From positions 1 to 52,688 of the forward strand of contig NW_025214845.1 in NCBI RefSeq assembly GCF_004010195.1: a DNA stretch of 52,688 nucleotides, written 5' to 3'. Of the stretch, positions 19,991-43,650 are shown piece by piece; the first letter of the stretch is position 1; each line of letters starts with the position of its first letter. Source of the stretch: Chiloscyllium plagiosum. Lineage: Eukaryota. Both the position numbers and the translations under genes were made by a program. The notes under the pieces were generated by a model. The model had not been told where the DNA came from and made no database searches. It saw only the letters and a list, made by a program, of their open reading frames with translations.

Positions 19991-22229
19991 CTATTTATAT
20001 ACCTATATAAGCTCTTACTGTCCTTTTTTTGTTTTTCGGTTGCGTTCATATTCTATTCTCCCTATATTGCAATCATTAAGTGTTTGCAACAAATTGTCAT
20101 GTACATGATTGCAAAATTTAGCATAGCTATTGAGATACAACAAAATGCAACGATCCAAATGCCTTGTCTGAATGGCTTTTCAGAGAGAAACAACCCTTGA
20201 ATGGCTAGATCAAATATGAGAACACTGCGATGTGGGCCCATAGCATTTAGTATGCAAAGTCCTCGCTAAATATTGGACACTCCCTTGATATCCTTCCTCA
20301 TTCCACTGTTCCGTTCCCGTTTCGCTGTCAAGGACTTAACAGAATATTATGCAATTCAGATGATTGAGTGACAGGGGTTAATGCTGTACTTTAACATTTA
20401 AGAATAACTCATTGATTACGAGTAACATAACCTCTCTGAAATTTGTCTGAGATAAGAATGGGTGATTCCGCATTTACTGCGAGGCTTTTTTTTTGCTCTC
20501 TGAAGATGGGGCGGATATAAAGCTTGTGTACTTAGACTGATTGCAACTACACTTGGAAATATGCTTTCGGTAAATCAGACATCTATTTATTTTGTGTCAG
20601 TCTTGTTTGGCCGGTATATCTTGGAACACATTAGAAATTACTCCATAGTTTTACCAAAAGAGTCATGTTTATGTGAGAAAAAGATATATACGGTATTTTC
20701 CCTTTGATCGCAGTGTCCCCCAAAAGAGTGATTCTAAAATATACTACATTGTGAAGCACAATAAAACAATTCTAAGCAATGATACATTACACTGAAAATA
20801 TTCACTGAACCAATTACTTTCCAGCTTTTGCCTTGCCGAACTTATTGTAGTGAAGACTCTTCATATTTTTCTTTGCTGCGCCCAGCAATTCATAAGTAAA
20901 CACAGCGCAATTAATGTGCAAACACTGAGATCGACCTCTGCATTTCAGTTCTGTTGACGTCCTAATGTTTACTGAAATTGACTGTTCTCTTGGAATACAA
21001 TTACACATGTTTTACGGTGAGATCCGAGTCTTCATTTCGTTTCCCAAGTACTGCATTGGAGGTAAAGAAACAGTCGCCCTTAACTTACTGAATCTCGAAA
21101 ATCATTCCCTGGTTCTCTTGTCTAGATCCTAAACGTAATACCTTGTTAGAGCTATTAATACGCCGAGAAGGTTCTCAAACGACTGCTGAGAAATCAACTA
21201 CAGGACGTGTTTTAACATTATGTTTAATTCTTAAAAACGATATAACTTCTGACGCGCCCTTTTAGTACTCTTTCAGTGTGCAGTCACCTGCTATATTGCT
21301 GAAGGGAGACACGAATTGGCAGTTAAACTACAGTGTCTACAATGAAAATCTGCTTAAAAAAACCTGACCCACGTTAATGTTTTAAAAAATAGAAAGAGAA
21401 TCCCGTACTTCGTGAATTCGACTACATCGCTATTGTTTAATAATCTTTATTCTGCACACTCACCCGTCCACTTTCAGATGATTAATCCACAAAAATGATA
21501 GACTGCACAATTGAAAGCGGTTATTGGCAGAAAGTCCAAGATCACAGCAAAAAAAAATCCGCCAAGAAACATGTTTACGTCGCATAAAAGGAAACCAGTT
21601 AAGATTTTAAAATATAACCGACACACTGTTAACCCCTTGAGCACTTTTCAGTAAAGTTACTCGGCTGGTCATGCGTGCTGCGGCTGTGCTCAATCAGCAG
21701 CGAAATCATCCAACTCACTGAAAATTTTCCAGTTTTGGAATGTCTGAGCAGACAGTAAGAACAACTTTCCTAATTAGTCTGATTACTCTCGATCATTTAT
21801 TGCGAGGTGTTTGCTGCATTTGTAAGATTTTTGACAACTAGTAATGTTCATTTTGAGTTGTAGGTTAGCTTGTTTGTAAACTAAACACTCGGATATGCTC
21901 TTGAGCTGCCCTACCGTCCAGGGCTGCGGACCAGGAGTTTGAAAGCTGGGATAGAGGTTGGAGGGCGCTTATCCATTGGGTAGGGAAACGATGGACCAAA
22001 TGCACTCCTACGATGTCATGTGTTTTTTTTCTATATTCCTAATAGTCGGTATAAAGTCACTTCAATGAATCTAAGTGATGCAATATGTGGGAGTAATCAG
22101 GTTTGCTGCGGGAGGGCTGTGTTTGCTACGGCTGTCGGGTTGATGGCGCTATGAGCTGACTCCTCTTTAGTAGGTTTCACGCTTCGCTAATACTACTCCA
22201 CAGGCGCCTACCTCTCACTCTCCCTTCGA

Positions 22230-22490
22230 GGAGGGGGGGGAAGGGGGGGGTGGGGGGAGGGAAGAGAGAGATTGCTTGTCAATAAACAAAACGTTTTTAG
22301 ATTATTACAAGGTCGCTCCCAGCCTTGAGCAAGCTCGTTCCCGAGTCCCAGCCCTACACATGAAGGCGGGACAAAGGCGGGGCAGCTTGACTTCGGCCAA
22401 TCGCAGAGTGCTCTCTTTTTAAAATTCCCTGTCCGTCACTCAGTTTCCTCTTCGTCAGCCTCCTTCGCCATATTGGGTAACTGAAAAAAA
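22230..22490 (+). promoter_or_regulatory. CDKN1B: CDKN1B core promoter / start of 5'UTR
   Basis: G-tract 22230-22262, forkhead-like ATAAACA 22282-22288, GC boxes ~22365-22383, CCAAT 22397-22401, TTTAAA 22418-22423, Inr-like TCAGTTT 22440-22446, then ttcgtcagcctcc..cgccatattggg as recalled for the human 5'UTR start. Confidence 0.8.
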
Positions 22491-22701
22491 AAGCCAGTTT
22501 TTTTTTCCGCCTTTACTAGAATCAGTTTTGACGAGCGATAGGTTGTAAACTGCTGTTGTTGTTAGCATTTTTGTTGTGGTTCGGTGCTTTGCAGCTTTCT
22601 GAAGAATTGCACGATATTGTTACATCGTGTAACCTTGCAGTTCTGCTGTCTGTGAGGCTTCGGACGATTTGCAGTGAGAGGGGGTACGAAGGGGAAAAAA
22701 A

Positions 22702-23182
22702 ATGTCAAACGTACGCATTTCTAATGGTAGCCCTTCGCTGGAGAGAATGGCAGCTCAGCAAGGAGGGCACCCGAAACCCTCAGCCTGCAGGAACCTTTTC
22801 GGTCCCGTAAACCACGATGAGTTGAACCGAGACTTACAAAAGAAACAGAAGGAGATCCGCGAGCAGGACAGGCGAAGGTGGAATTACGACTTCGAGAGGG
22901 ACAAGCCGTTGGATGGGAATTACAAATGGGAAGCGGTGGATTGCAAGGATGTGCCTAATTTTTACTGGGGTTCTTCGAGGGAGCAAGTGTCATCAGCGGA
23001 TTGCAGTGTGGATGTGAACGGGAACCATGCGATTGTTTGCGTAGGAACTTTGGCTCTGGGAAATTCAGGGGACACGCACTTAACGAATTCAGAGCAAAAG
23101 GACGTGGTTAAAGAGACAACTGAACATTTCACGGACTCAAAAGAGCAGTGCTGTAGTCCCCGAAAACGAGCTGCGTCAGTCG
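22702..23182 (+). CDS. CDKN1B: Cyclin-dependent kinase inhibitor 1B (p27Kip1), coding exon 1
   Basis: MSNVRISNGSPSLERM N-terminus, KPSACRNLFGP cyclin-binding motif, CDI domain WNYDF...PL.G.Y.W, RKR NLS half; phase-1 donor G|GTAAGT at 23182/23183. Confidence 0.97.
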
Positions 23183-23566
23183 GTAAGTGACAAAGATGCA
23201 CTCTCTTTTGGGAGCTGCAGGATCCATTTTCAAACGGACCTTTATGACCTTTTTCTTTTCCCGCAAAAAGAAGCTTTCACCACCAACCAGTGGTTTACTC
23301 CTTTATTTCCAGTGGACCTGCTTTTAAAATCGTGCAGTTCTTGGTCTGTTTGGGGTTAAGCATGAGTTCCCCTACGTTTGAAAAAGGCTACTGCAACTTC
23401 AAAGGCCTTTTAGAAAGATGAAGCAAACGGCTTTTTCCTCGTTCAACAAGCTTGAGATGTGGTTGACTAATACCCACCAGCACAAGTCTTCAATAGGAGT
23501 AGGAATGACCCTCATAATATACCATCATCCTTATTTCAATTTTTAACTAGCTTTTCTTGATTATAG

Positions 23567-23691
23567 ATGGATTTCCAGAAGCAAAAAGAGTCAACACAGC
23601 GACGGAGACAGACTGGTCAGCAAATTCTCCCAATATAAATGCATTAGAGAAAACGCCGAAGAAATCGATTTCGAGCGGGCATCAAACATAA
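23567..23691 (+). CDS. CDKN1B: p27Kip1 coding exon 2
   Basis: Acceptor ttttcttgattatag|; in frame gives (D)GFPEAKRVNTATETDWSANSPNINALEKTPKKSISSGHQT* with TPKK degron and terminal QT; 201 aa total; candidate donors at 23698/23699 and 23706/23707. Confidence 0.95.
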
Positions 23692-25261
23692 AACAAAGGT
23701 GACAAGGTAGTTACGATGTACCTTTTTCAATTGATTGTGTCCTCCCAAAATATCCTATAACGTAGCTAGCAACAAGACTGCATTGATCAATCGGCCTCAC
23801 TAGCCCAGGTTTGAAAGTGTATACAGGGTTGTAATGTCACTGCTGTTTCTTTGCTATATTTTCCTGAACGACACGTATGCACAGGTGATTATTTCCAGCT
23901 GCTTTCAAATAACTAGATACACTATTGCGTTCTGCACAAGAATCCTAACGTCTTCGGTGACCTTTCTTTCCCTGCCCAATATAGTAGATTGCTTTGCCCA
24001 AGTCTTGTCAATAAAGTAAGTCACAGGACTGACTGAAAATGTAGTACATTACGCGGGGGAGTGCGCAACCACAACAGTGGTGTGCCTTTGTAGGCTTTAT
24101 ACAATGAACATTTTTTTTTCTTTACGCCAACGTCCATCATAAATATAATAAAAGGAGAAATAATCACGATAAAAATGGATCACTAGAGCAAGTTGTACTT
24201 TATCTCCCCAGCTAAAATATCCAAGCAGCATTCAAAGTAACACTTGGGATGGAATACAAATTTGTAGAATAGCTGCTTTACAAACATGTTTAACGTTTCT
24301 CATTTTGGGACTCTAATTTCCCCTATGATTTTGCGCTGTAGTAAGATATGAGAGGAGGGAATATATACACAATGCACAAAATGAGGGGTAGGGTGGGGAA
24401 GCTACATTTTAAATGGCTAGTCTCAACAAAGTAAAACTTAATGGAGATTATTCTTATTTCTTGGCCTTGTCCACATTGGTAGCCATAGTAAAAGTAATGC
24501 ATTGAAAATATTGCCCACTTTGTGTGAAATACTGCATATGCTAAATAACTTTGTCTTTTGTGTCAGTTTCACATAGCACAAGATGTGATACCTCATGCAC
24601 CTTTTGTGCTGACATTTTAAATATCCTTTGTCAAAATACTTTTTTTTTTGCAGTTATGACTTTTCTTTAAATTGATAGATCTAACTAGTCAGATCCAAAA
24701 CCTCTAACATACTCATTTCGGTGACTTTCTGTTCAGTTAATGCTGCCAAACTTTATCAATTTGCCCCTCTCACTGCATCAGAAAACAAATCTGTTTCTTT
24801 TTTTAAAGAAAAGCCTAGGAGCATCAGTCCTAATTATATTTGGATTACCAAATAATACATGTTTATGCATTTGAAAATTATGGCTGCTAGTTAAATGTGG
24901 TTGTGTGTCCAATGGGATAAAGTCCCACCATGCTGACTGAAATGGATTTTTTGATTACTTCCAGGCAGAAGATACAACTTATCCAGCTGCTAGATTTTAA
25001 ATGAGATATGGCAATATCACAATAATAACTTGATTGTATCTGTGCACAAGTCTTAACACTACTTATGGTATTGGTTGGCTCAGCGTCCAGTTGAATAACC
25101 AATTGCAATTGCTTAACCCTTTTGCCAACTGTACCCTGTAATCAGCAGCTGAGTTGAAATTATCAGTGTGGCTATGCCAAATAGCATTTTAAGTAATTCC
25201 AATCATACATAATTACCAAACATTGTATTAATCTTTTTTACTTCGTATTTTTCCTTGTTAG

Positions 25262-26005
25262 ATATGAAGATCTTTTTTCCTTGTTCATCCATGGCAGTGC
25301 TTGATGAAGCGAGGACGATCTCCTCAGAGACAGACATATCGTTATCTCTCCAAGTGAGGAGAGCCCAGGCACTGAACTTGTGAACACTAAACCGCCTATT
25401 TTAGAGTGGATATAGCGCTGTGCAATTAGGTTCTTCCTTTATCACTTGGCTGATTTTACTACCTGTGTATATAGTTTTTTTTTTGTAGCACATAAACCAT
25501 TTTTGGTGGGGGAGGGGAGGGAGGGATGAGACGGGAAAATATTAAAACGCAGAGTTAGACAATGTATGACTTGAATAGTAGCAGTATAGTTTTCCAATGC
25601 AGTTTAGAAACTGCAAAGTTACAATACCTGTGTATTGTATGTTTAAAAGAATAAAAAAAAATCTAAAATGTACCTGTGTACATAACTTTGTAAAGACACT
25701 GAGAAATTATACTAACTTATTTATGTTGAAAAGAATTGTTTTTTTGAAATCTAGAAGATAATTTTCCGTTAAGCCAAAGTGGCATTCTTCATGTGCATTT
25801 GTAAATGCTTTATTGTAGATTTTCCCTTCCGTTTTTGCCTGTCATAATATAAGGCTATGCTTGAAAGAGAAAGCGTCCTGAGCCATTTTCTGCCTTAATA
25901 TTGAATATATTCCTCATTTTTGTTTTGTAACGTGTGAAGAGATGCTGACTTTGTCCCGCATCCTGATTTCAAATAAAGAAAAACGTACAATATACGTGTG
26001 TATAG
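25262..26005 (+). other. CDKN1B: CDKN1B exon 3 (3'UTR)
   Basis: Acceptor tttttccttgttag|; blocks tgcaattagg, tactacctgtgtatatagttttt, tgtacctgtgtacataact, aattatactaacttatttatgtt and aagccaaagtggcat match the recalled mammalian UTR; AATAAA 25972-25977. Confidence 0.88.
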
Positions 26006-26559
26006 CTAATTCACATTGCAAATGTCCAAGAAAGCGTTAAAGTAGCTAGTGCTACTACCTTAGTTAAGTTGAGGGATGTTTTGGTTTGCATAATGATTTG
26101 AAAATGATCTCGGGGTTTCTGTGATTGTAAATGTAAGGCTTATTTTGAGATGAGGCATTTTTAAGTGTCGATGCGAGCTACACCTAGTCAAAGAAATAAG
26201 TAAAAATGTTTAATGTTCCATATTTTCAGAAAACCGTTATAATTCCAAGGGTTTTATCCGCACCCTGAAACAGTTGCCTCTGATGCTTAAGACATTATTT
26301 TTAAATGATAAACGCATCTTCTTGGGTGTGATTTTTGAAGAGGGGATTTAGCGTGGCGGGGGAGTTGACAACAGAATGCCAGAGTGCTTAGGTCCTGTAC
26401 CTTATCTTCACCACCTATCTTCCCCCCTCAAAGGAAAAGCGAACCGACATGCATTTGAAAGCCTTATTTTAAAAAAATAACAGTAGCTGCAGAAACAATA
26501 GCTTTGTAAAACATTATCGCCCGCTAAGTAGGAGCCAGACACTCCCAGGAGCAGCTACA

Positions 26560-27050
26560 GTGTGTGTGGGAGAGGGGGAGCTCGAGCTCTGGAGCGGCTA
26601 GCGCTCTGTGGATGATTGACAGCTCGCGTACTAAAAAAAGCACGCCACGGTGTGGCGGCCAATGAGGGCGCGAGCTACTCCAACGTCAGCGCGCGCCTGG
26701 CCGTGTTTGTCTTTCAAAACTGTTGCCCCGCCCACTAGCCACAGTCGCGTTGGCCCACGCTCGAGGAGACGAAACAAACGGTTGGGAACGACACGATTCT
26801 ATTGGAGGACAAGAACGTCAATCAGCGAGAGGAGGCGTCCTTGTCGCGAGCGCGCACGCAGTTCGGAGAGAGGCCGTCCAACTTTTTGAATTCATATTTA
26901 AAACGACAATAACCGTTTCCCAAAGTCTATTTAAAGCTGCGCCAAAAAAATAGAAACCTTCACTTGCCTTTTTTATTGGTCTGTCTCCTGCAACGGTTAG
27001 ACCGAAATGATACATTTACAACGGCACGGCCGCTCGAATTTAGAAAACAA
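26560..27050. promoter_or_regulatory. CpG-island promoter-like element downstream of CDKN1B
   Basis: Very CpG-dense; TGATTGACAG 26613-26622, CCAAT 26659-26663, GC box 26725-26733, ATTGG 26801-26805, GTCAATCA 26817-26824, TTTGAA 26885-26890. Confidence 0.75.
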
Positions 27051-28362
27051 AATGACGATCATACAAAATAGGTCTGTCAATGTAGGCGGAGTGGAATGCG
27101 TTCTTTATATTTTTAAGAAAAAGCCTTAAGTGCGTTTAAGACAGCGAAGTGTGAATAAAATGTAATTTTCTACAGAGTGCAGTATGGAGCGGACCTTTTT
27201 TTAAAAAAGTGATGTTACAGTGCGGACAGGTTTAGATGGCCTCCATCCACCCTTTACGTTCCTTCACATGTTTCACAGCTGCTGCCCAGTGACTAAGTGA
27301 ATTGCCAATTTAAAAAAAAATCATTGGAACGATCACTCCACGCTGTCACATAGGAGCGGGGAAGTTGGTAAGTAGCTTGTTCTCATTTTAGAAGAAAGGA
27401 AAAGAAAAGGCCGCTATTAAAAAGCCATTTTACTCTTGCAGTAATTATGTTGTAATTAGTTATAATAAACACGTCTTACTTAACGAGACAACTTGCTTCA
27501 GCCTGCAGTAAATATTAGGCAGCGAAATGGAAACTAAACTGTATTTCATCTTCAACAATTCTCAGTGTAGACCTCAGCAAGGCAACCACAACGTTTGCAG
27601 TAGGTCTGCCTTTTTAGTGGTATACTGGTACACCCAGTACCTACATCCTAAATAATACCTGTTTTTTAAAAAAGGTACATGTACGTGATTGATGACTGGC
27701 TTTCGTGGTATGTTCCACAGCAAATTTAAATTTAATTTTCACCTACTTTTGCGCAGTCCTCATCAGTCTAACAAGATTATAGTGGCATAGATACTCACTA
27801 AAATGTGCTCTTGACGTTTTTTTTTCTTAAAAAAGCAACAAGTAAAATTGTGTAGCCCCATTTGTAGAAAGACAAGCCTATGCGTGAAATATACAAAGTA
27901 TCTGTTTCATATAAACTTGCCAATAGATAAGAGGAAGAACTCTCGTTTGGAGACCTCGTCTGCTTTCTCCAGGTGTAATCTATTTATTAATGTGAAAACA
28001 ACGCCATTCGCCTTTCATGAGTTTAACACAAACACAATTGAAGCGATCATATATAACACCATGCTGCAAGACATCTCAAACAGAAGGCCTGGTAATTTGT
28101 AAATCATTTCGCGAAGTATCAATCGAGCAGAACTCGTACAGAATTCTAAATCAATTGAAGCCTTCACTCAATCAATAACGACTTTTGTGGGGTTTATTTA
28201 TCTGCTCACTAGGAATAAAAATAGTGGTGGGTGGGGTGGAGCGTTAGTAAGTTATGGGATACTTAATGTCTGCCTGTAATGTTATTGATTAGCTAATCAA
28301 TTGGTTTATGATTATAAACTTGCACACAAAAAATCAGTTGGACTATGAGCTCTTATTTCGTA

Positions 28363-28467
28363 GAGGTAATATCCCTACCTCTGGACCAAGAGGCTCGGGT
28401 TCAAGTCCCACCTGACGCAGAGTAGTATAATAACAGCAGTGAACAGGTTGACTAGAAAATATCTAAG
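28363..28467 (+). mobile_element. Short tRNA-derived SINE (host of the fold-back insertion)
   Basis: ccctacctctggaccaagaggctcgggttcaagtcccacctg...gaacaggttgactagaaaatatc; same family as 14183-14302. Confidence 0.7.
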
Positions 28468-28591
28468 GTAAAAACAATGACTGCAGATGCTGGAAACCAG
28501 ATTCTGGATCAATGGTGCTGGAAGAGCACAGCAGTTCAGGCAGCATCCGAGGATGCTGCCTGAACTGCTGTGCTCTTCCAGCACCATTGAT
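28468..28591. mobile_element. Fold-back Penelope-derived mini-element with 16-bp TSD
   Basis: Perfect inverted arms 28507-28548 / 28551-28592; TSD ctagaaaatatctaag at 28452-28467 and 28592-28607. Confidence 0.9.
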
Positions 28592-31474
28592 CTAGAAAAT
28601 ATCTAAGTATACTTAAGTCCGGCTTGACATGTATCTCTACCTTTGGGCTAAAAGCGCCTGGCTCAAGTCCCACCTATAGATTTGATCAAGTTGATTAAAA
28701 ATATGGAAGTTTTAGATCGATATTAAAACATTAAACGTCGGCTGTCCAAATCTGGCACCACTTAACTATAATCTTCATGCAGAAAAAAAACACTACAGGT
28801 TATGCGTACTTGAACCAAGTATCACTAATTTTACCCGAATTAAAGGCCCTGCCGAATATTAACCTTTTTGTTGAATCGATATTAGGACATCCAATTCAAT
28901 TCTGTTTTCATAATACAATTATAGTCTCTCACCACATAACCACACATTGTTTACGACCCTGGCAGTGTTAAAAATGTTTTGGTATTCATGCATACACCTG
29001 TGACTCCATGTATTTTTACAGATTACACATATTTTGCATATACTTCACCATCAATTGTCATTCTTAAAAAAATGAAATTATTTGGAAAATGAAGCAAGTA
29101 TTTGCATTACATTTACAATGGAATGGGTAAATGGCGGTAAATGGGTTAAATTGGAGAATCGTATATTGTGAAAAGTGAACAGGTACAAAGACAGACTGAT
29201 AAAAGGCTGGAGTCTACATCAGGGACACAGGAGAAAAGTGGCAGATATATGTAACGCAAAACAATCAAGAGTGATTATTACAAGAATGATAGTTTGATTG
29301 GAGGATCGATTGAAATAATAAGATAATACAGAAATGGATGACTTCAGGGGTCTGGATGGACAAAAACCACAGAGAACCAAGGCTGGGATGAACTGATGGT
29401 TTATTTTCAGGTGGAGCAGAAAAAAAAGTGAGCCGCTGCGATGCTTTGGGTGATAAAACCAGACCGGTCTCCCAATACCATCCACGGCCAAGATTATTGA
29501 ACAGGAAGATTATGTAGGAAGACGCAGAAGAATAAATACAAACATGGACTCTTTCAGCTACAATGAGAGATTTAACACAGAGCGTTGTTTGGTTCGAGAA
29601 TAGAATTAGATTTCTATTAACGCGTTTCGTTGTTCCTTATGTATCCCGATCGGTTATCGGTAATGACTCATACACGTTAATTCTAAAATAAAAACCTTAT
29701 TTCTATACCATTATTTCTAAATTTAAAGGAAGGAGAGATATTATGTCTTATTTTCGATGGATTAACGTATCAAGTCAGAGGTCAGTCATATGCACTCAAT
29801 TCAACGCCATCACATATGGAAATAAAGTACAGAAACAATTTTTCTGACATTTGCTATCTAATCGGTATGGGACAGAGATGAAAATTGCTGTTAAATCATT
29901 AATTAAGAGAAAAAGAAAGGGAGGATCTTTCCCCCCCAGACAACAACGTTACATTGATCATTTTTTCTTGTTGGAGAACTTAGTCAATGCTCTAAAGACA
30001 TTTCTTAAATATCATTTAGGCCAGGCTAGTCTATCTCTGGTTACCTAATGGCATACATATAAATTCATACAATACAAAGCAAATTAAAGATGCATTAAGC
30101 TCCCAGGCAGGGGCAAAGATCATATAATCTAACTGTGGGAGTAAAATCATCGTTTGGAAATAAAATAGCTACCCAAGAAATTATGAATTATAACTACACC
30201 GGCTTTACCCATTTCAATCTCCAACTTTTTTTAAGTTGTGAAGGAAAATATCTGAAGCGATGAAAGCTGTGTCAGATAAGGTTGAGATAGATCTTAATGA
30301 TATTTCGTATTGATAGTTTATTATGTGGGGTGGGGGGGGGGGGGGGTGCCTTTGAAATTCCAAAATCGATGCAATGGAATATTGTCCATCTATGAATGAA
30401 TCATATTTCCAAACTAGATTCTATACCTAGTTTAAACATAATTTAAGAATTGATTATGCAAAATTTGTATGAAAACCTTTAATATGCTTTGATCCGCCAT
30501 GGTTAGTAAATTATAAATGTGAAACTTCATAAGAACGGTGCCAGTTAACTGATTCTATGTAGGTAGACTACTTTTACAAATCTGAAAGCCTGTTCCTAAA
30601 GTGTAAATCTCATTGCAACTGAAATGATACTCCGGCTAAATGCTACTTATTATAGGAAACAGTTCGAGTCAATTTCTTACTGTCGAAAGACAGTCAAGAA
30701 TCCATCAGACCTCATCCTGTTTCACTGTTGCAGATTATGTAACGAAATACAACAACGTGGATGAAGCCATCCAGCACAAAGTGAATGAACTATAATCTAG
30801 TTACTGTTGGTTTTTAGTAGATTAGGATTTCGATGACTGTACACCATACAGGTTTGATATAACTCAGTTGAAAACCACATTAAAAGCGGCAATTGAATCC
30901 AAAGAAACAAAGTTGACTAAGCTCGAAAGTAGAATCACATCACTTATTTAACCTCTGAAGAATGCATATTCTACAACTGCTCTTCCGTGCATTTCTATAA
31001 CATTAAACAACTTACAATTCCAGAGTGAATGCATAACACTCTACTGTTTACCGCACATATTTGCACGTGCTCTGCGCCTATTTCCACCTCTTAAACCGAC
31101 ACATAGACATCAGAAAAAAATCCCTCCCCACACAAATATTATCCAGTCTCTCCTAAACATACAATCAACAAATGCGTAGTAGAGAATCAGTTTCCGTTTT
31201 AAATATTTGCTCCATTCACGAAACATCAATTACTATGTCTAACGTTTCTACAATAAAGACGAAAAACTTGCCTTCCCGTTTCTCACAATGTGTGTGGGGA
31301 TGAATTTCCGCCAAGGTTTTTCCGCTCTCTTATACAGAAATTTACTCCACTTCCATTTTACTTAGGAAATCTTTGCGCAATCAATTTGCATTCCCGAACA
31401 ATTGGATGGTTTAGACACAAAGAAATTTGAGTTTTAACTGAAGATAACATTGTCACTCTAGGGGTATAAAAAGA

Positions 31475-31862
31475 TGGTAGCCATGACTTGGAGGTACCGG
31501 TATTGGACTGCTGTGGACAAATTTGAAAACCACACACTGCCGGGTTATAGTCCAACAGGTTTATTTGGAAGCACTAGCTTTCTAAGCGCTGCTCCTTCCG
31601 GATTTAACCTCTGAAGAATGCACATTCTTCAACTCTTCTTTCGTGCACTTCTATAACATTAAACAACTTACAGTTCTAGAGTGAATGTACAACACTCAAC
31701 TATTTACCGCACATATTTCCACATGCTCTGCGTCATTTTCAACCTCTTAAACGACACAAACATCAGAAACATTTCCCTAGAAAAATTACAACCACCTGAT
31801 GAAGGAGCAGCCGTGCTTCTAAATAAACCTGTTGGACTATAACTGGTGTTGTGATTTTTAAC
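31475..31862. mobile_element. Fold-back mini-element with 12-bp TSD enclosing captured local DNA
   Basis: Inverted arms (gttatagtccaacaggtttattt / aaataaacctgttggactataac); TSD ggtataaaaaga at 31463-31474 and 31863-31874; interior 31602-31778 duplicates 30946-31125. Confidence 0.88.
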
Positions 31863-31884
31863 GGTATAAAAAGAAACATTGAGG

Positions 31885-32120
31885 AGGGTGATGGTGTAAT
31901 GGTAATTATTGGGCAAGTATTCCAACTTCAAAATACTTTGGGACACAAGTTCAAATCTCACAATGGTAGACGATAATAAAATATGGAAAAAAAAACTGGC
32001 CTAATGATGAGCATGTAACTACTGTTGATGACTGGGGCTTTTATGGCACAGTAGTGGTGTGTCTATCTCTGAGCCAGGAGGCCCGGTTCAAATCCTACCC
32101 GTTCCAGAGGTTTGTAATAG
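31885..32120 (+). mobile_element. Two adjacent degraded tRNA-derived SINEs
   Basis: A/B-box-like heads tggtgtaatggt...agttcaaatctc and tggcacagtagt...ggttcaaatcc. Confidence 0.55.
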
Positions 32121-32825
32121 TTTCAAATCGACCTGTTCAGAGAAATTAATAGAAGAGAACATTCTCGGGTAATTGTAGCTCTTTCATTGGCTGCAATGCT
32201 CGGGAAAACACCAATGAAGCTACTGTACAGCAGTTATGCGATTATGGCATCACTCGTCTGCGTAAATTCCCTGCTGGAGGACACTCGACCAGGGAACAGA
32301 CATCAGTAACCATATTCCCAGAACTGCAAGTAATTTCTTAGGTTCCGTTTCTTGTTTCTAGTTATTTGTAATTCAAGGAAAAAAAAACTACTGCAAAATT
32401 TTGTTATTTCCTTATTTGAGAAAAACAACCGAGAAGTTTATTTTAAATCTATTTAATGTGAATCTAACGAAATGCTAAGGGAAACACAACTTTAAATGCA
32501 GACTTTCGAGAATGATTGTTAATGTTAACAATACACAGTAGCCAATCAAGATAAACATGTAATAAGGATTCTTTTGAAATTTTCGATTAAGGCTCTACTT
32601 AGCAACTAAGACATTTGAACAATTTCCGCTGTCGATCCATCCAGCTAATTACAAACTTTCCTGGTCAGTTAATTTGGGCCAAATGCACTTTTCAATCTGG
32701 CTGAAATTTGCACTTTGAAGGCAAAGCTTTGAAGCGCCGTTATCTTTTAAATTTTTATACACATGTGCAGTAGTACATAGTGACAATATACGAATAGTTT
32801 ACATCCATCTGTCCTTTTCACGTAG

Positions 32826-32916
32826 GAAGAACGCTGGTCAACCAGATACAACTGATGATCTTTGAAGCAAAAACCTAAACGTGCCCAAGGGAAAAAGCAA
32901 TGATATTTAAGCGAAG
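32826..32916 (+). other. Candidate non-coding exon (91 nt)
   Basis: Acceptor gtccttttcacgtag| and donor AAG|gtgagg; stops in all three frames. Confidence 0.4.
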
Positions 32917-35289
32917 GTGAGGCGAGTTACACATCAGAGGAAGTAGTGGTGAGAGTTTCAACGAGAAGCAATCTCGGAATAGGTTAGATAGGGGTCCAGT
33001 ATGTTGAGTATCCATTGAGATGTAGGTGATGCTAACCTTTATGGACTTTCAAGTCGACAGAAGTCCAAGATTTGATATTTTGCATTATGGAGTGACGCGC
33101 CCTCTACACTACCATATTTCAGGAACGGAATTATGCAGTAATAGTAGTGTGTAATGCAGTAATAGTAGTTGCTCTGACGCGGCGTTCACGAATATGCTAA
33201 CTGCTAATGCCAGCCAGACGTTACGGCCCAGCGACCAAGTTAACTGGATCTTATTTGGAGAGCAGGCAATTACTAACATTCTGAAATTGCATAGATTTGT
33301 TATCATTAGTTACACTCATGGTTAATAAGAGGATATGCCCTCCTGCAGTGACAAAGTGGAGAAGTTGACTGACCCATCAGTGGAATATTTGACTTATGCA
33401 GGACAACTGGTGTTAAAAATCACTGCTTCAAGTCCCACCTGTTTCAAAGTTGATGAGAAAACGTTTCTTTTAAGTTGAAGTGCCCATTCTACGGGTGCTA
33501 ACTGGCTTATTGAGCACCCCCAAATGGTGGCCAGCAAATCGTCATCTTGATTACAGGAAAAAAGTACAGGCATAACACATTTCACTTGTAAAAAAGGGCT
33601 AACCACTCTTGCAGGCATTTATTTCAAAGTTAATTTACTGCGAGGCAGAGTTAGCTACATTGGGGTGAATCAGGTTTTAGGATTACTGGGGAGCCCATAA
33701 AACGTTTTACAATACTCACTTTAAAGCATAACTTCCCATTTAATCAATTATCGGATCCAGTCCAGATCACATCCCTTGACCCCTAGCGCTAATGCTGGAA
33801 TTCCTAACCCTAATGTGAACCGAGTCTTAAACCCAAAACGAATTTACCTGAAGACTTCTGCGATGCTAATAGTGCTCTTATCTTTTACTTCTCTTCCTTG
33901 GAAGGCTGTTGAGCTCTCCCAGTCCTATTATAATGAGAGCTGGAGAGTCTCTGTATGTCATGAGCCTCTTATCCAAAATAGAGCGAACAATCCCAAAGCA
34001 ATTAATTAAAAACTAATTTCAAATATTTAAGCAAAAAAAAGATTAGAAAGTTGGCCCTCTTGGAGCTGGATAATTGGATATTCAATTGTGAAGTGCTACC
34101 CTTCCCTAATTGGAGGGCGCGGAGAAGCTACGTATCAGGAACAAGGACGGGAACAAATAATACACAACGCACTGCAACCTAGATTCGGTTCTTTATTCAT
34201 TGCAGAAAATGTCAATCATTCTAAATGTAAACGATCTTAAAATGTGAAAGTTTTCTCCCCCCCCCCCGTCCTTTTTATGCAAATCGCATTTCATGTTATT
34301 GTAAATGCAAGTTATTGTTTCCAATGTTTGAGAGGCAGCTCTTTGCATATGTATATTCAAGCAAGTAACCGAGATCTCTCCTAAACAGAATGGTTAAAGT
34401 TTCAAATCAGTCGGGAACCAAGCAATGTAAACAGGATTGTTTGGCTGGAACCCAAAATGCTGTTATGCCGACCAATAGCTAAAGAGTAAATGCATTAAAC
34501 TTTCTATAATTGATATAAAATATTTACATTGTATTTTCCTTTGATTAACAGGTGATTGTTTTGTATTAGCATCCTATGATTATATTTTGTGTTCTAATGA
34601 GTGTAATAATTGCAGATGGTCGAACTGCTCCCAGAAAGGAAAGACTTATTTACAAAAAACTAGCTGATTAGTACGTGTTTTTCATGGAATAATACAGACC
34701 TTCGTGATTTATCATTAAGACTCTATTGAAACCAAACGTTTCACTTATTGTAATGTTAACAAACTTCAAGTGCTTTAAATACTTGAAGTGAAAAGAATTG
34801 CAGGCTAAACAGCTCAGCATTGTGGCTAATTAAATAGCGCTTTCAGAAAGCTGGCACAATCATAATGGTTTCCTTCTGTGCTATATTTTCCTATGATTTT
34901 GTATGAAGGTTTTTTTCTGGTACGTACACAATTTGAAGAAACATCTTCCGCATAACTTACAATATTATACTTCCATTATTAATGCATAAGTTAATTATCT
35001 GCATATAATTATGACTCAAACCAGTCTTTGTTTATACACTCATTGGAATATGACATCACTGGCAAACATTCATTGTCCATCCCTAATTGTCTAAGAGAAG
35101 GTAATAGCAAACTGCTTTTTTTGAACTGCTGCAATCTGTGTGGGTGAAGGTAATACTTCAGTTCAATTTTCTATGTCTGGCTTTACTAGTGTACTGTGGA
35201 TCATCGGAGAATGGAGATTCAATAAATCCACTTGTATTGTATGTGGTGATTCATTCTGGTCAAAAAAAATATGTTGTGAACTGTCCTCT

Positions 35290-37635: not shown

Positions 37636-37845
37636 TGAGTGTATGATGCTGGAAAAGCACAGCAAATCAGGCAGCGTCCGAGGAGCAGGAAAATCTGTTT
37701 CAGGCAAAAGACATTCCTGATGAAGGGCTTTTGCCTGAAATGTCGATTTTCCTGCTCCTTGGATGCTGCCTGTCCTGCTGTGCTTTTCCACCACTGCACT
37801 CTCGATTCTAATCTCCAGCATCTGCAGTACTAACTTTCACCTAAG
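37636..37845 (+). mobile_element. Fold-back Penelope-derived mini-element with TSD and hammerhead motif
   Basis: Arms ~37636-37710 / 37728-37800; TSD gatattgcaggt at 37624-37635 and 37846-37857. Confidence 0.88.
37713..37748 (+). ncRNA. Minimal type I hammerhead ribozyme motif, CpG-decayed
   Basis: attc-CTGATGA-a-gggc-tttt-gcct-GAAA-tgtc-gatt: core boxes, helix II and GUC cleavage triplet. Confidence 0.6.
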
Positions 37846-39373: not shown

Positions 39374-39540
39374 ATGTAGGAACAAATTACTGCAGATGCT
39401 GGAACCTGTATTGAAAACAAATGCTGGAGATCAAAGCGGATCAGACAACATTCAGAGAGCTATCTCGACTCGAAACATTAGTTTTGCTCTCTCTCCATGG
39501 ATACTGTCTGACCCGCCGTGATCTTCAGCATTTGTTGGTT
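39374..39540. mobile_element. Fold-back Penelope-derived mini-element with 14-bp TSD
   Basis: Arms aacaaatgctggagatca..gcggatcagaca / tgtctgacccgccgtgatcttcagcatttgtt; TSD ccattca(g/a)atcacc at 39360-39373 and 39541-39554. Confidence 0.8.
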
Positions 39541-40904
39541 CCATTCAAATCACCGATTAACGGAACGACCTTGTTACAAAAACCGTTGTTGGAATGTGCT
39601 AATGTCCAGGGTCTGACTTCGTGTTTTAATACACGAGATCGTGTCGATGTTGGTGGTAGCAATATCTTACGGTTCCTGCGATTTTTCGAGTCGAACAATT
39701 AGTTTATCCAGTTTTATTAAATAGTTATTCTTGCGAATATTTAAAAACTACACAAATGCGGCGAACTGGTGACGGCTTTTCCAGATTTGTTTACATTTTG
39801 CATAATTTTATTTCAAATAATGAGACGGGAATTCGTTCTGTCGGATCTATTTTGCATAGATTAAACAAAATCAGGTAATGTCTGGTATATATTAAGCAGT
39901 TTTGTAGAATTTTAAAAATGGTGCCCTGTTTACTTAACCTGATTATTTCAACTACAAAATGTAGTGAAACCGTGAAGTATCATTTCGAATGTGTGACAAT
40001 TTGAAATTTTCAATATCCTTGACGGGACACTGTACGTTTTACGTTAACCCATAAAAAATGCCACATTTCGTAAATATCACATTTTTAAAATGCATAATTT
40101 GCATTATTTCTATGCCTTACCATGAACGATCTTTTGGCCGTTGTGCTTCAGGTTTATGGTTTGATTCAGCCATAGATTCTTTATGTCAATGAAATCCAGT
40201 TGGTTTCGTTTTGTAACATGTATACTGTGGAATAAATGGAAAGACGTTACAGAATGTTCTTGGTTTGCTCTTCTTTCATGGAATATCTTAAAATATCCTC
40301 TTCCGTAATAATTGCGGGCTCATTTCCAGTAATTAGTGAGTTGTTGAAATTCATAGAGTACCCCGAAGGTTCTCCTGCTACTTCCTTTACCGTCATTGCA
40401 GAATCCTCTATTGTCCCATAATTCCCGCCAGAAACTGCTGTATCTAGCGGACCAATAGTGACTGGCAACATAAATCCATTGCAGTCCACCCAAATGGACA
40501 AGATTTCTCGAAAATGTGAATGAAAAATTCCTTGAAAAGTTGGAGTTTTAAAATAAATTAGCATTACACAAAAAAAACTACGACCGAGTGGGTTGGTTGT
40601 GTGACCAACTGTCACTCCTGGGTTAAGTATACCTAAATAAGGTATGACAAATAAATAGTTTCATTCGGTCCATAGACTTCCCATCAATCTTCAAGTTAGA
40701 AGACCCCACGGAAAGTACTTGGGCGTGGAATAAGTGAACGGGAGTACCTGTCATAGATACTGGCAGATGTACAAACAAAAAGCGTGTATTTGGAGTTTAG
40801 TGGCACCAAGGATCTAAGCATTAGTAGAGATTATAGCTATGTAAAGATACCAACAAAATATTGCTAATTGCTTTGATACTGGTCACTAGTTTTTGAAGGG
40901 CAGA

Positions 40905-41612: not shown

Positions 41613-42901
41613 AATTACAAAGAAATTGCAAGGAGAGAGAGCGTGAGTCTTCCCATTCTACTACTTAAATTGATTTTCCTGCTCTATTCAAAAACTGTCT
41701 TCCTGCAATGCATTTCAATTGTATATTCCTCTGTCTGACATCTGGTTGAATAACCTGCAGACAACTTTGCTCTAATATATGAAACTTCCAGATTTTGGCT
41801 CTGACTGATTTTTGCTTATTGAGATTTTCATGAGCTTGACTCAAGCTGATCATGTGATTACTGCAGACATATTAAGTATTCAACTTTTTCCCCTTTTTTG
41901 TTTCAACCAATTTATTCCATGAAAGGTCTTGGGTGTTAAAATTAGAAAATAGAGATTGGTAGTTCATTTTTACTAGTGTCATAACTATCATAATTCTAAT
42001 TTAATAACCTTTTGCTTAAAGCAAAATGCTGTAGATGTTGGTGATCTGAAATAACAACAGAAATTGATGTAGAAACTCAGCAAGTTTGATAGTGACTGTT
42101 AGAAACAACACTAAAGTTTCAAGTTCAATATAGCTCTTCCATAGAACTCAGTGGAAGTACATTTACCTATTGAGGCCCATAAATTTGGTTATTTATATAT
42201 TGTCTTGTAAACACCATTTAATTTGAAGTATAAAATAAAGCTTGAAATTATCCCAACTTCCCCACTCTTAACAGAATAATAGGCACATGAATTAGACTTG
42301 CAGTAAAATATAATGGTGAATTGTCAAAAAAATGACAAATAACTAATGAAGAGCAGAAATGAAAATTATATGTAAAGAATACATTTATTGAGATGCTAAA
42401 TATTATATTGAAGCACTGTTGAGACAGTTTAGCAGTGACAAGCATTGGTGGAAAATTGAACCTATGGCCTCATTATCAAATGGACAAGCTGCGGACCCTT
42501 AATGATTTTCCTCTTAGCTTCAGCCAGAGGTTCTCTGGTAAGTCCTTAAGGAAGAGGTGACTATGAAGGTTTATTCAGAACAGAGTGTGACCAGGAAAGG
42601 CCTGTTGAGAAGAATAGCAAATTGGGAGAGGGAAATAGGGGCATGGATAGAGGATGGTAATTAAGGTCATTCTTGGAAAGAGGTACAAATAATGGGCCAA
42701 CATTAAATTGAAGTTTGGAAGTATCCTGAAGAAGGGTTATTGGAGCCGAATCATTCATTCTGATTTCTCTTCACAGATGCTTCCAGACGTGCTGAGGTTT
42801 TGTGTTCTTATTTTAAGTTGAGGTTTTACTATTAGGAATACTATCGACCTTCCTACCTCTTATTTAGACAAATATTTTGAAGAAAACATTATATTTTGGA
42901 A

Positions 42902-43650
42902 ACAAAAACAGAAATTGCTGGAAAAGCTCAGCAGGTCTGGCAGCATCTGTGAAAAGAAATCAGAATTAACGTTTCTGGTCTGGTGACCCTTCCTCAGAAC
43001 TGATGGTAGCTAGGAAAATGTCAGTTTTTATGCAGAGGATAGAATAGTGGGGAGGGGCTAAAGAGTAAACAATAGGCAGGGATAGAGCCTAGCAAGAGAG
43101 AACAGTTGGTTAGACATAGGAGTGGACAATGATCTGGCTAGGAGGAGACATAGCTGTTCATGGAGATAGTTAGTGGCTGACAATGGGTTGTATGTAATAG
43201 TAGACTATGCGATCACAAGACCTGGTGTGTGAGGGTGGAAGCTGGAACATAGGAGAGTTCAAGCTCTAAAGTTATTGAACTCAATATTGAGTCCTGAAGG
43301 CTGTAGGGTTCCAAGTGAAAACAAGGTGTTCTTCCAGCTTACGTTGATCTTCACTGGAGCACTGCAGCAAGCCTGAGACAGAGATTTTGACCAGAAAGCA
43401 GGGTGGTGTGTTGATGTGGCAGGCAAGCAGGCAGGGGAAAGGGAGTAAGGCGTACTCCTTACCCTCTTTACCCCCCCCCCCCACCCTATATTCTGCATAG
43501 AAAACAACACTTTCCTAGCTACCATCAGTTTTGAGGAAGAATCACTGGACCTGAAATGTTAACTCTGATTTCTCTGCCAGACCTGTTGAGTTTATCTAGC
43601 AATTTCTGTTCTTGTTTCTGATTTGCAGCATCCACAGTTCTTTGGGTTTT
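42902..43650 (-). mobile_element. 5'-truncated Penelope-like element: GIY-YIG C-terminus, pLTR and inverted pLTR
   Basis: Minus 43420-43259 encodes, with a frameshift, HINTPPC...SGLLQCSSEDQRKLEE/..SLGTLQPSGLNIEFNNFRA*; arms 42902-43045 and 43485-43650 are inverted copies. Confidence 0.88.
42959..43003 (-). ncRNA. Minimal type I hammerhead ribozyme motif in the Penelope pLTR
   Basis: Minus: tcagtt-CTGAGGA-a-gggtc-acca-gacca-GAAA-cgtt-aattctgat; helix I with bulge, helix II, palindromic ACGU helix III, GUU triplet. Confidence 0.65.

Follow-up and report, generated by a model that had tools for sequence, protein, structure and literature searches.

A direct copy of neighbouring DNA at the seam of a putative Penelope-like insertion in Chiloscyllium plagiosum

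Introduction

Inverted copies with tails are standard in Penelope-like elements (PMC8557442), as are minimal hammerheads (PMC6155905), according to the accessible sections of both papers. A lizard Penelope protein was found to cut AT-rich DNA and to extend both strands, with two starts that are separated by the tail (PMC11167929). The way in which the inverted arms are formed is still described as undefined in the available parts of PMC8557442 and PMC11167929. Templated local insertion in a retroelement is an already known kind of event, as the accessible literature on L1, on Pack-TIRs and on pLTR capture by Penelope in a rotifer makes clear. For L1, 22 templated insertions of less than 250 bp were found among about 3,600 somatic L1s and were linked to the pairing of the cDNA with nearby DNA (10.1101/2024.08.27.596794, in excerpt), and three more were obtained in an expression model (PMC11702581, in excerpt).

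In the present work, we analysed 52,688 nucleotides of C. plagiosum DNA (RefSeq assembly GCF_004010195.1, contig NW_025214845.1, forward strand), a stretch that is called the window below, in which an insert at 31475-31862 holds a copy of upstream flanking DNA between two inverted arms. The head-to-head arms and the one-sided tail are the same as those of the Penelope-like insertions described by Craig et al. 2021 (PMC8557442) and Frangieh et al. 2024 (PMC11167929), and the AT-rich target, the target-site duplication (TSD) and the hammerhead core letters are also alike, as far as the accessible sections of those papers show. The tail measures 46 nt here compared to the 30-40 nt published (PMC8557442, in part). 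What sets the locus apart from the insertions in the available parts of these papers is a non-element piece of 177 bp at the seam and the lack of an ORF. A similar arrangement was reported for Adineta vaga by Arkhipova et al. 2013 (PMC3846280), who found a TSD that enclosed pLTRs with unrelated, non-coding sequence between them. In the case that is detailed in the sections examined, a whole gene lay between direct pLTRs and had been moved to a new site, whereas the inverted arms here enclose a short piece of the adjoining flank, copied in direct orientation. The same sections do not trace the fillers to DNA beside their own target, and our literature search, which covered few subscription papers, found no paper that traces a Penelope filler in this way.

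Outside the Penelope-like elements, the L1 cases share with this locus a non-element template of less than 250 bp and the duplication of nearby DNA (10.1101/2024.08.27.596794; PMC11702581, both in excerpt). They differ in that L1 is another class of element, in that its templates typically lie no more than 15 bp from the site, possibly with longer ones too, compared to 338-517 bp here, and in that the timing is certain for new somatic events and deduced for ours (10.1101/2024.08.27.596794, same excerpt). The single-copy Pack-TIRs (Tan et al. 2021, PMC8277862, accessible sections) also carry a single-copy filler between inverted ends and have a cis donor within less than 5 kb. They are, however, DNA transposons with mostly post-insertion capture and with microhomology in 68% of cases, whereas the locus described here has asymmetric pLTR arms, a one-sided tail and no clear microhomology. 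An earlier sequence-only reading of the locus spoke of a Pack-like mechanism, which overstated the likeness: there is one copy, it was never re-amplified, and capture by single-copy Pack-TIRs mostly followed insertion in the sections of PMC8277862 that were available. Pol theta insertions show the same flank-templated patchwork with small fillers, but these inserts are generally shorter than 25 bp in the accessible parts of PMC12426944, so the 9-nt filler of our locus alone would fit and the 177-bp piece would not.

Materials and Methods

Public contigs from four of 24 listed runs were aligned to positions 30400-32000 at 80% likeness. Two of these were DNA runs: X1, from organism A, was read to 84% and X12, from organism B, to 64%. 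A contig in them is evidence of presence, and the lack of one is no evidence of absence. Runs X17 and X19, which are only guessed to be RNA, were not counted as evidence of transcription. Run X1, which may be the source sample, was not counted as independent support.

Results

The insert and its donor are made up of the following parts:

31463..31474, plus strand: left copy of the TSD, 12 bp, an exact repeat spanned on contigs from organisms A, B and C
31475..31520, minus strand: one-sided tail, by which the pLTR extends 46 nt past the end of the right arm in the arm alignment
31521..31598, minus strand: left arm, the portion common to the right arm, which stops inside the putative hammerhead core; thousands of family records match it
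31599..31601, no strand: left-junction filler of 3 nt, unlike the donor flank and unlike the family continuation
31602..31778, plus strand: captured interior of 177 bp, a direct copy of the donor
31779..31787, no strand: right-junction filler of 9 nt, with likeness to the end of the copied tract
31788..31862, plus strand: right arm, an inverted tail-less pLTR copy that begins 8 nt before CTGATGA and has a 12-nt deletion including GAAA
31863..31874, plus strand: right copy of the TSD, an exact repeat crossed by contigs of organisms A and B
30946..31125, plus strand: donor segment of 180 bp, native flanking DNA

The TSD, GGTATAAAAAGA, is exact over 12 bp, as the sequence-only reading had claimed, and nine of its 12 bases are A/T; the whole window holds two exact 12-mer pairs spaced 395-405, of which the TSD is one. 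From left to right, the TSD encloses the tail (46 nt), the left arm (78), a filler (3), the interior (177), a second filler (9) and the right arm (75). By inspection, no separate TSD flanks either arm, and a single TSD encloses both arms and the interior.

The interior aligns to 30946-31125 in the same orientation with 155 of 180 columns identical (86.1%, E 1e-55). The differences comprise 22 substitutions (12 transitions and 10 transversions) and three gap positions, and the substitutions are evenly spread, with 6, 7 and 9 per third. The donor ends 338 bases and starts 517 bases upstream of the TSD, which agrees with the same-orientation copy, about 85-90% identical and 340-520 bp upstream, that had been described by eye. 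Together, the TSD and this alignment bear out the core of that earlier description, a local same-orientation copy within a single TSD-bounded Penelope-like insertion. In the window, the sequence occurs only as the interior and the donor, with no third copy. Identity extends 0 nt outward from the copied tract into the donor flanks on either side, and no clear microhomology was seen at the junctions. The family continuation and the donor have their first two letters in common, yet a 3-nt filler intervenes. The 9-nt filler has one mismatch to 31765-31773 and also one mismatch to 31872-31880 in the right flank; such near-matches occur about 0.013 times per 20 nt. If the base of organism B at 31120 is ancestral, the filler is one A apart from the end of the donor. 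These letters suggest that the filler may be a false start or a slip. A 20-nt inverted repeat (31118-37 and 31288-307) spans the right edge of the donor, at about chance level in 4 kb by a rough estimate.

The two arms, 31521-31598 and 31788-31862, align head to head with 54 of 62 ungapped columns identical. The left arm, read on the minus strand, retains stem II and GAAA without CTGAT, just as the sequence-only reading had it. The same reading misplaced the restart of the right arm; the arm actually starts at 31788, 7 bases before "cctgatg". CTGATGA is present in the right arm, but the deletion of the 12 nt that include GAAA means that there is no whole hammerhead core in either arm, and a whole-core pattern matched neither. 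Rfam gave no match for the arms at the gathering threshold or at E up to 10, nothing special emerged from folding them, and a 22-base arm pattern had no match in metagenome or viral contigs. "Hammerhead" is thus used here as a putative label taken from the core letters, and "Penelope-like" as one taken from the architecture and the core letters.

In other copies of the family, 31580-31598 is joined to 31788-31790 directly or with 2-17 letters between them, and the join of 31582 to 31788 was found on 33 contigs in X1, both among the 15 of 158 joints listed. Because these copies join their arms at the same positions, the interior is placed at the usual seam of the family. It is foreign to the arm family itself: ordinary copies join the arms with no or few letters, so that the interior is not part of the element consensus. 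It also follows that the break inside the hammerhead is normal for the family and not peculiar to the capture, given that the family joins fall in the same zone. Past 31598, family reads continue with letters unlike the interior in the loose-end consensus, and past 31862 they run into tail-like letters. Of the first 17 letters that the loose-end consensus gives alike in all four runs, the right arm includes 13, and it is therefore barely eroded at its centre. Judged by eye, the left arm departs from the family consensus at seven of 26 positions in 31517-31542, and the matching region of the right arm keeps the family bases except for two small gaps. This cluster of seven differences adjoins a 31-nt stretch with one difference from the right arm; it is possible that two RNA templates or error-prone synthesis produced it.

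In both DNA runs, the donor was covered at the flat depth of one contig, which also covered its flanks, apart from one bin at the donor start (30940-30993) in X1. At 80% likeness, these runs do not show the interior to be the multi-copy sequence that would have spoken against a local capture. A paralogue of the donor at 80% likeness or more was not seen in the two runs (84% and 64% read). Records matching the aligned region numbered 24,303 in X1 and 14,920 in X12, nearly all of them on the arms, and the arm depth was thousands to hundreds of thousands of times higher than that of the donor, although summed depth does not equal copy number. With the donor on one contig per DNA run and the arms on thousands of records, the interior is not element body. 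Cover in X1 is absent over 31642-31749, a hole that is not readable as an empty allele.

All three of the other organisms that were compared (B, C and D) carry parts of the insertion. In organism B, one contig runs over the left arm, the interior and the right arm (31569-31853) with 13 other letters, one runs over the donor, the left TSD and the left arm with 45 other letters in 1168, and one crosses the right TSD. The contig of organism C crosses the left TSD and shows the left junction only, and that of organism D matches 31646-31796 without a difference. Neither an empty site nor an allele with arms only was seen among the four runs, in which the joints are swamped by paralogues. At three of the 22 positions where interior and donor differ (30967, 31063 and 31120), the donor of organism B has the base of the interior, which indicates that these changes arose in the donor of organism A after the split and that the copies evolve independently. 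The corrected distance between interior and donor is 0.136, compared to 0.040-0.052 between organisms A and B, which makes the event about three times older than the A/B split. At such an age, the chance of a 12-bp TSD still being intact is 0.20. The arms differ from each other at 8 of 62 positions (12.9%, CI 5.7-23.9) and the interior from the donor at 22 of 177 (12.4%, CI 8.0-18.2; Fisher p 1.0). The arm differences are clustered, with six in the distal 19 columns and two in the other 43 (Fisher p 0.008), and on the 43 proximal columns taken alone, the duplication would seem older than the arms (p 0.18). The matching divergences are weak support for a single event, because the limits are wide and the arm differences are unevenly spread.

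Discussion

We tentatively favour a reading that we hold to be close to evenly balanced: in an insertion primed at both ends, one cDNA would have changed template to flanking DNA, and this switch would have connected the two cDNA ends. An endonuclease would have cut the AT-rich site with a 12-nt stagger, and both DNA ends would have primed the reverse transcription of pLTR RNA, the left one from the tail start and the right one from the tail-less start. We infer the timing, the DNA template and the double priming, the last of these because the lizard Penelope protein behaves in this way in vitro (PMC11167929). The two cDNAs would be of the same polarity and unable simply to anneal, and in ordinary copies they would be end-joined near the hammerhead. 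In this copy, one cDNA 3' end would have taken chromosomal DNA 338-517 bp further left as its new template and copied about 180 nt, after which the copying strand would have been released and joined to the other end, with the 3- and 9-nt fillers left behind. The polymerase could be the reverse transcriptase or a host repair enzyme. By analogy, the short distance to the template that is typical of L1 (no more than 15 bp) and the generally small size of Pol theta inserts (below 25 bp) would argue against this switch, as would the single-copy Pack-TIRs, which show the same cis bias and are mostly post-insertion in the accessible sections of their description.

The switch onto flanking DNA may have had either of two geometries. 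In the first, the right cDNA, at the usual end of the RNA, would copy the plus strand, which we infer to be the strand exposed by left-end resection; a right-end primer is favoured by the right arm, which reaches close to the usual end of the family. In the second, the left cDNA would loop back into the duplex. A left-end primer is favoured by an exact 12-mer that links the left arm (31523-31534) to 30868-30879 at an offset of 655, compared to 656 for the duplication; no other 12-mer of the left arm recurs exactly elsewhere in the window. This 12-mer was noticed post hoc; 39 of 197,711 random locus pairs match likewise within five diagonals, and the rest of its diagonal is no better than random (81% and 33% of null windows reach the same score). 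That the landing register was set, in the style of a recombinase filament, by a match of 12-14 nt located within the cDNA and 67 nt back from its 3' end is quite unlikely. The 12-mer includes two bases at which the left arm departs from the family. The segment 30819-30945 was considered as a decayed arm and rejected, as only the 12-mer scores.

A later repair event is also possible, although the balance is somewhat against it: a plain head-to-head fold-back would have been inserted first, and its palindrome would have broken at the centre at some later time, with the gap filled from nearby DNA in the manner of templated sequence insertions. The single copy, the cis donor within 5 kb and the internal breakpoint match the pattern of gap-filled Pack-TIRs (PMC8277862, accessible sections), and patchwork fillers suit end-joining repair. 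The position of the interior does not discriminate, because an inverted repeat is fragile at its centre, which is also where the integration seam lies. On the other hand, the divergences of the arms and of the duplication show no lag, the right arm is nearly complete to the usual end of the family, and the interior is present together with its junctions in organisms B and D.

Capture at integration from RNA, in which the reverse transcriptase would have left the pLTR RNA and jumped to a nascent local transcript, seems unlikely. The right arm begins near the usual 5' end of the family, which is the expected jump point, and the locus lies 5 kb behind the poly(A) signal of CDKN1B in a CpG-rich domain. 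Non-homologous junctions with small fillers fit jumps of a reverse transcriptase, as known from R2 and L1. Template jumps were moreover proposed for the Penelope inserts of a rotifer in the accessible part of PMC3846280. An RNA template could, however, derive from anywhere, yet the whole donor lies less than 520 bp from the nick, and a transcript of the donor is putative.

An independent or older duplication, in which two insertions came to flank a copy already there or the insert was the source of the upstream segment, is very improbable. The two differences in the 43 proximal arm columns would suit it, and the 12-mer near the same diagonal could hint at a longer shared history. Beyond the 12-mer, however, the diagonal is at random level, the TSD encloses everything and is absent beside the donor, and in organisms A and B single contigs run unbroken from the donor into its flanks. 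That the interior belongs to the normal body of the element or is a repeat with many copies, the upstream copy being another insertion, is barely credible: the extra depth of the bin 30940-30993 in X1 (27.7 vs 17.8) and the share of the runs that was read (84% and 64%) leave it some room, but the remaining donor is at one-contig depth in X1 and X12 at 80% likeness and the family has different letters beyond the hammerhead.

The insert at 31475-31862 is an old, dead insertion of about 400 bp that was never amplified and has no likely function. It is unlikely to matter to the animal; its value lies in a wider survey of fillers, not in the single copy, and a single old copy cannot fix the timing or the template. 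It is possible, but doubtful, that local capture is a regular by-product of seam sealing by Penelope in C. plagiosum, with a reach far beyond that reported for L1. If this is true, such fossils would be traces of a double-ended intermediate that is long-lived and either resected or looped, and would offer a direct route to testing how the inverted arms of Penelope form and join. Where the local donor of a filler is known, the filler shows the place of the seam and narrows down the possible intermediate, in which both ends would be primed with free 3' ends and the flanking DNA would be reachable over at least 520 bp, as implied by the donor distance. Surveyed across a genome rich in short fold-backs, such fillers could serve to measure small local duplication by Penelope elements.

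Surroundings of the insertion

The window contains five hairpin inserts with Penelope-like arms (~28475-28597, 31475-31862, 37640-37830, 39385-39540 and 42899-43618), four of which have flanking repeats of 13-17 nt with at most one mismatch; only the insert at 31475-31862 has an interior copied from the window. The fold-backs at 28475-28597, 37640-37830 and 39385-39540 belong to other families and have flanking repeats of 14-17 nt and no foreign interior. Two adjacent Penelope-like inserts lie at 42726-43618, the larger of which is a fold-back with a 398-bp interior. This interior (in 42899-43618) had no match in the window and no Pfam match, and it resembles the end of a Penelope ORF.

The frame at 30640-31185 on the plus strand crosses the left edge of the donor; it has three stops in 179 codons and is coiled-coil-like, and 9 of 1200 sampled frames nearby are equally open. 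Its best Pfam E value was 0.25, none of 336 word-search candidates matched, and a 48-aa part gave nothing in Atlas. Two phmmer matches, to repetitive coiled-coil proteins of unrelated assemblies, were rejected as compositional. Another open frame of 137 codons is found on the minus strand at 40247-40660, near a CpG-rich patch at 39.5-40.5 kb. It had no Pfam match, and a comparison of the ORF at 40250-40537 with 75 candidates yielded no homologue.

A coding exon of CDKN1B (p27) is located at 22678-23190 (Pfam CDI, E 3e-20), with a second coding exon near 23568-23708 and a long 3' region that runs to an AATAAA near 25972. Around and behind this gene, a CpG-rich domain extends over 21000-34500 with an o/e of mostly 0.4-1.1 and one 500-nt bin at 0.07. 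The CpG o/e is 0.41-1.14 in 26-34.5 kb compared to 0-0.35 in 35-39.5 kb, with a sharp end near 35 kb. A GC-rich, promoter-like patch with CCAAT boxes and no assigned gene is present at 26500-26860. Finally, the segments 29265-29640 and 32150-33500 read like decayed coding sequence, with long frames and few stops.
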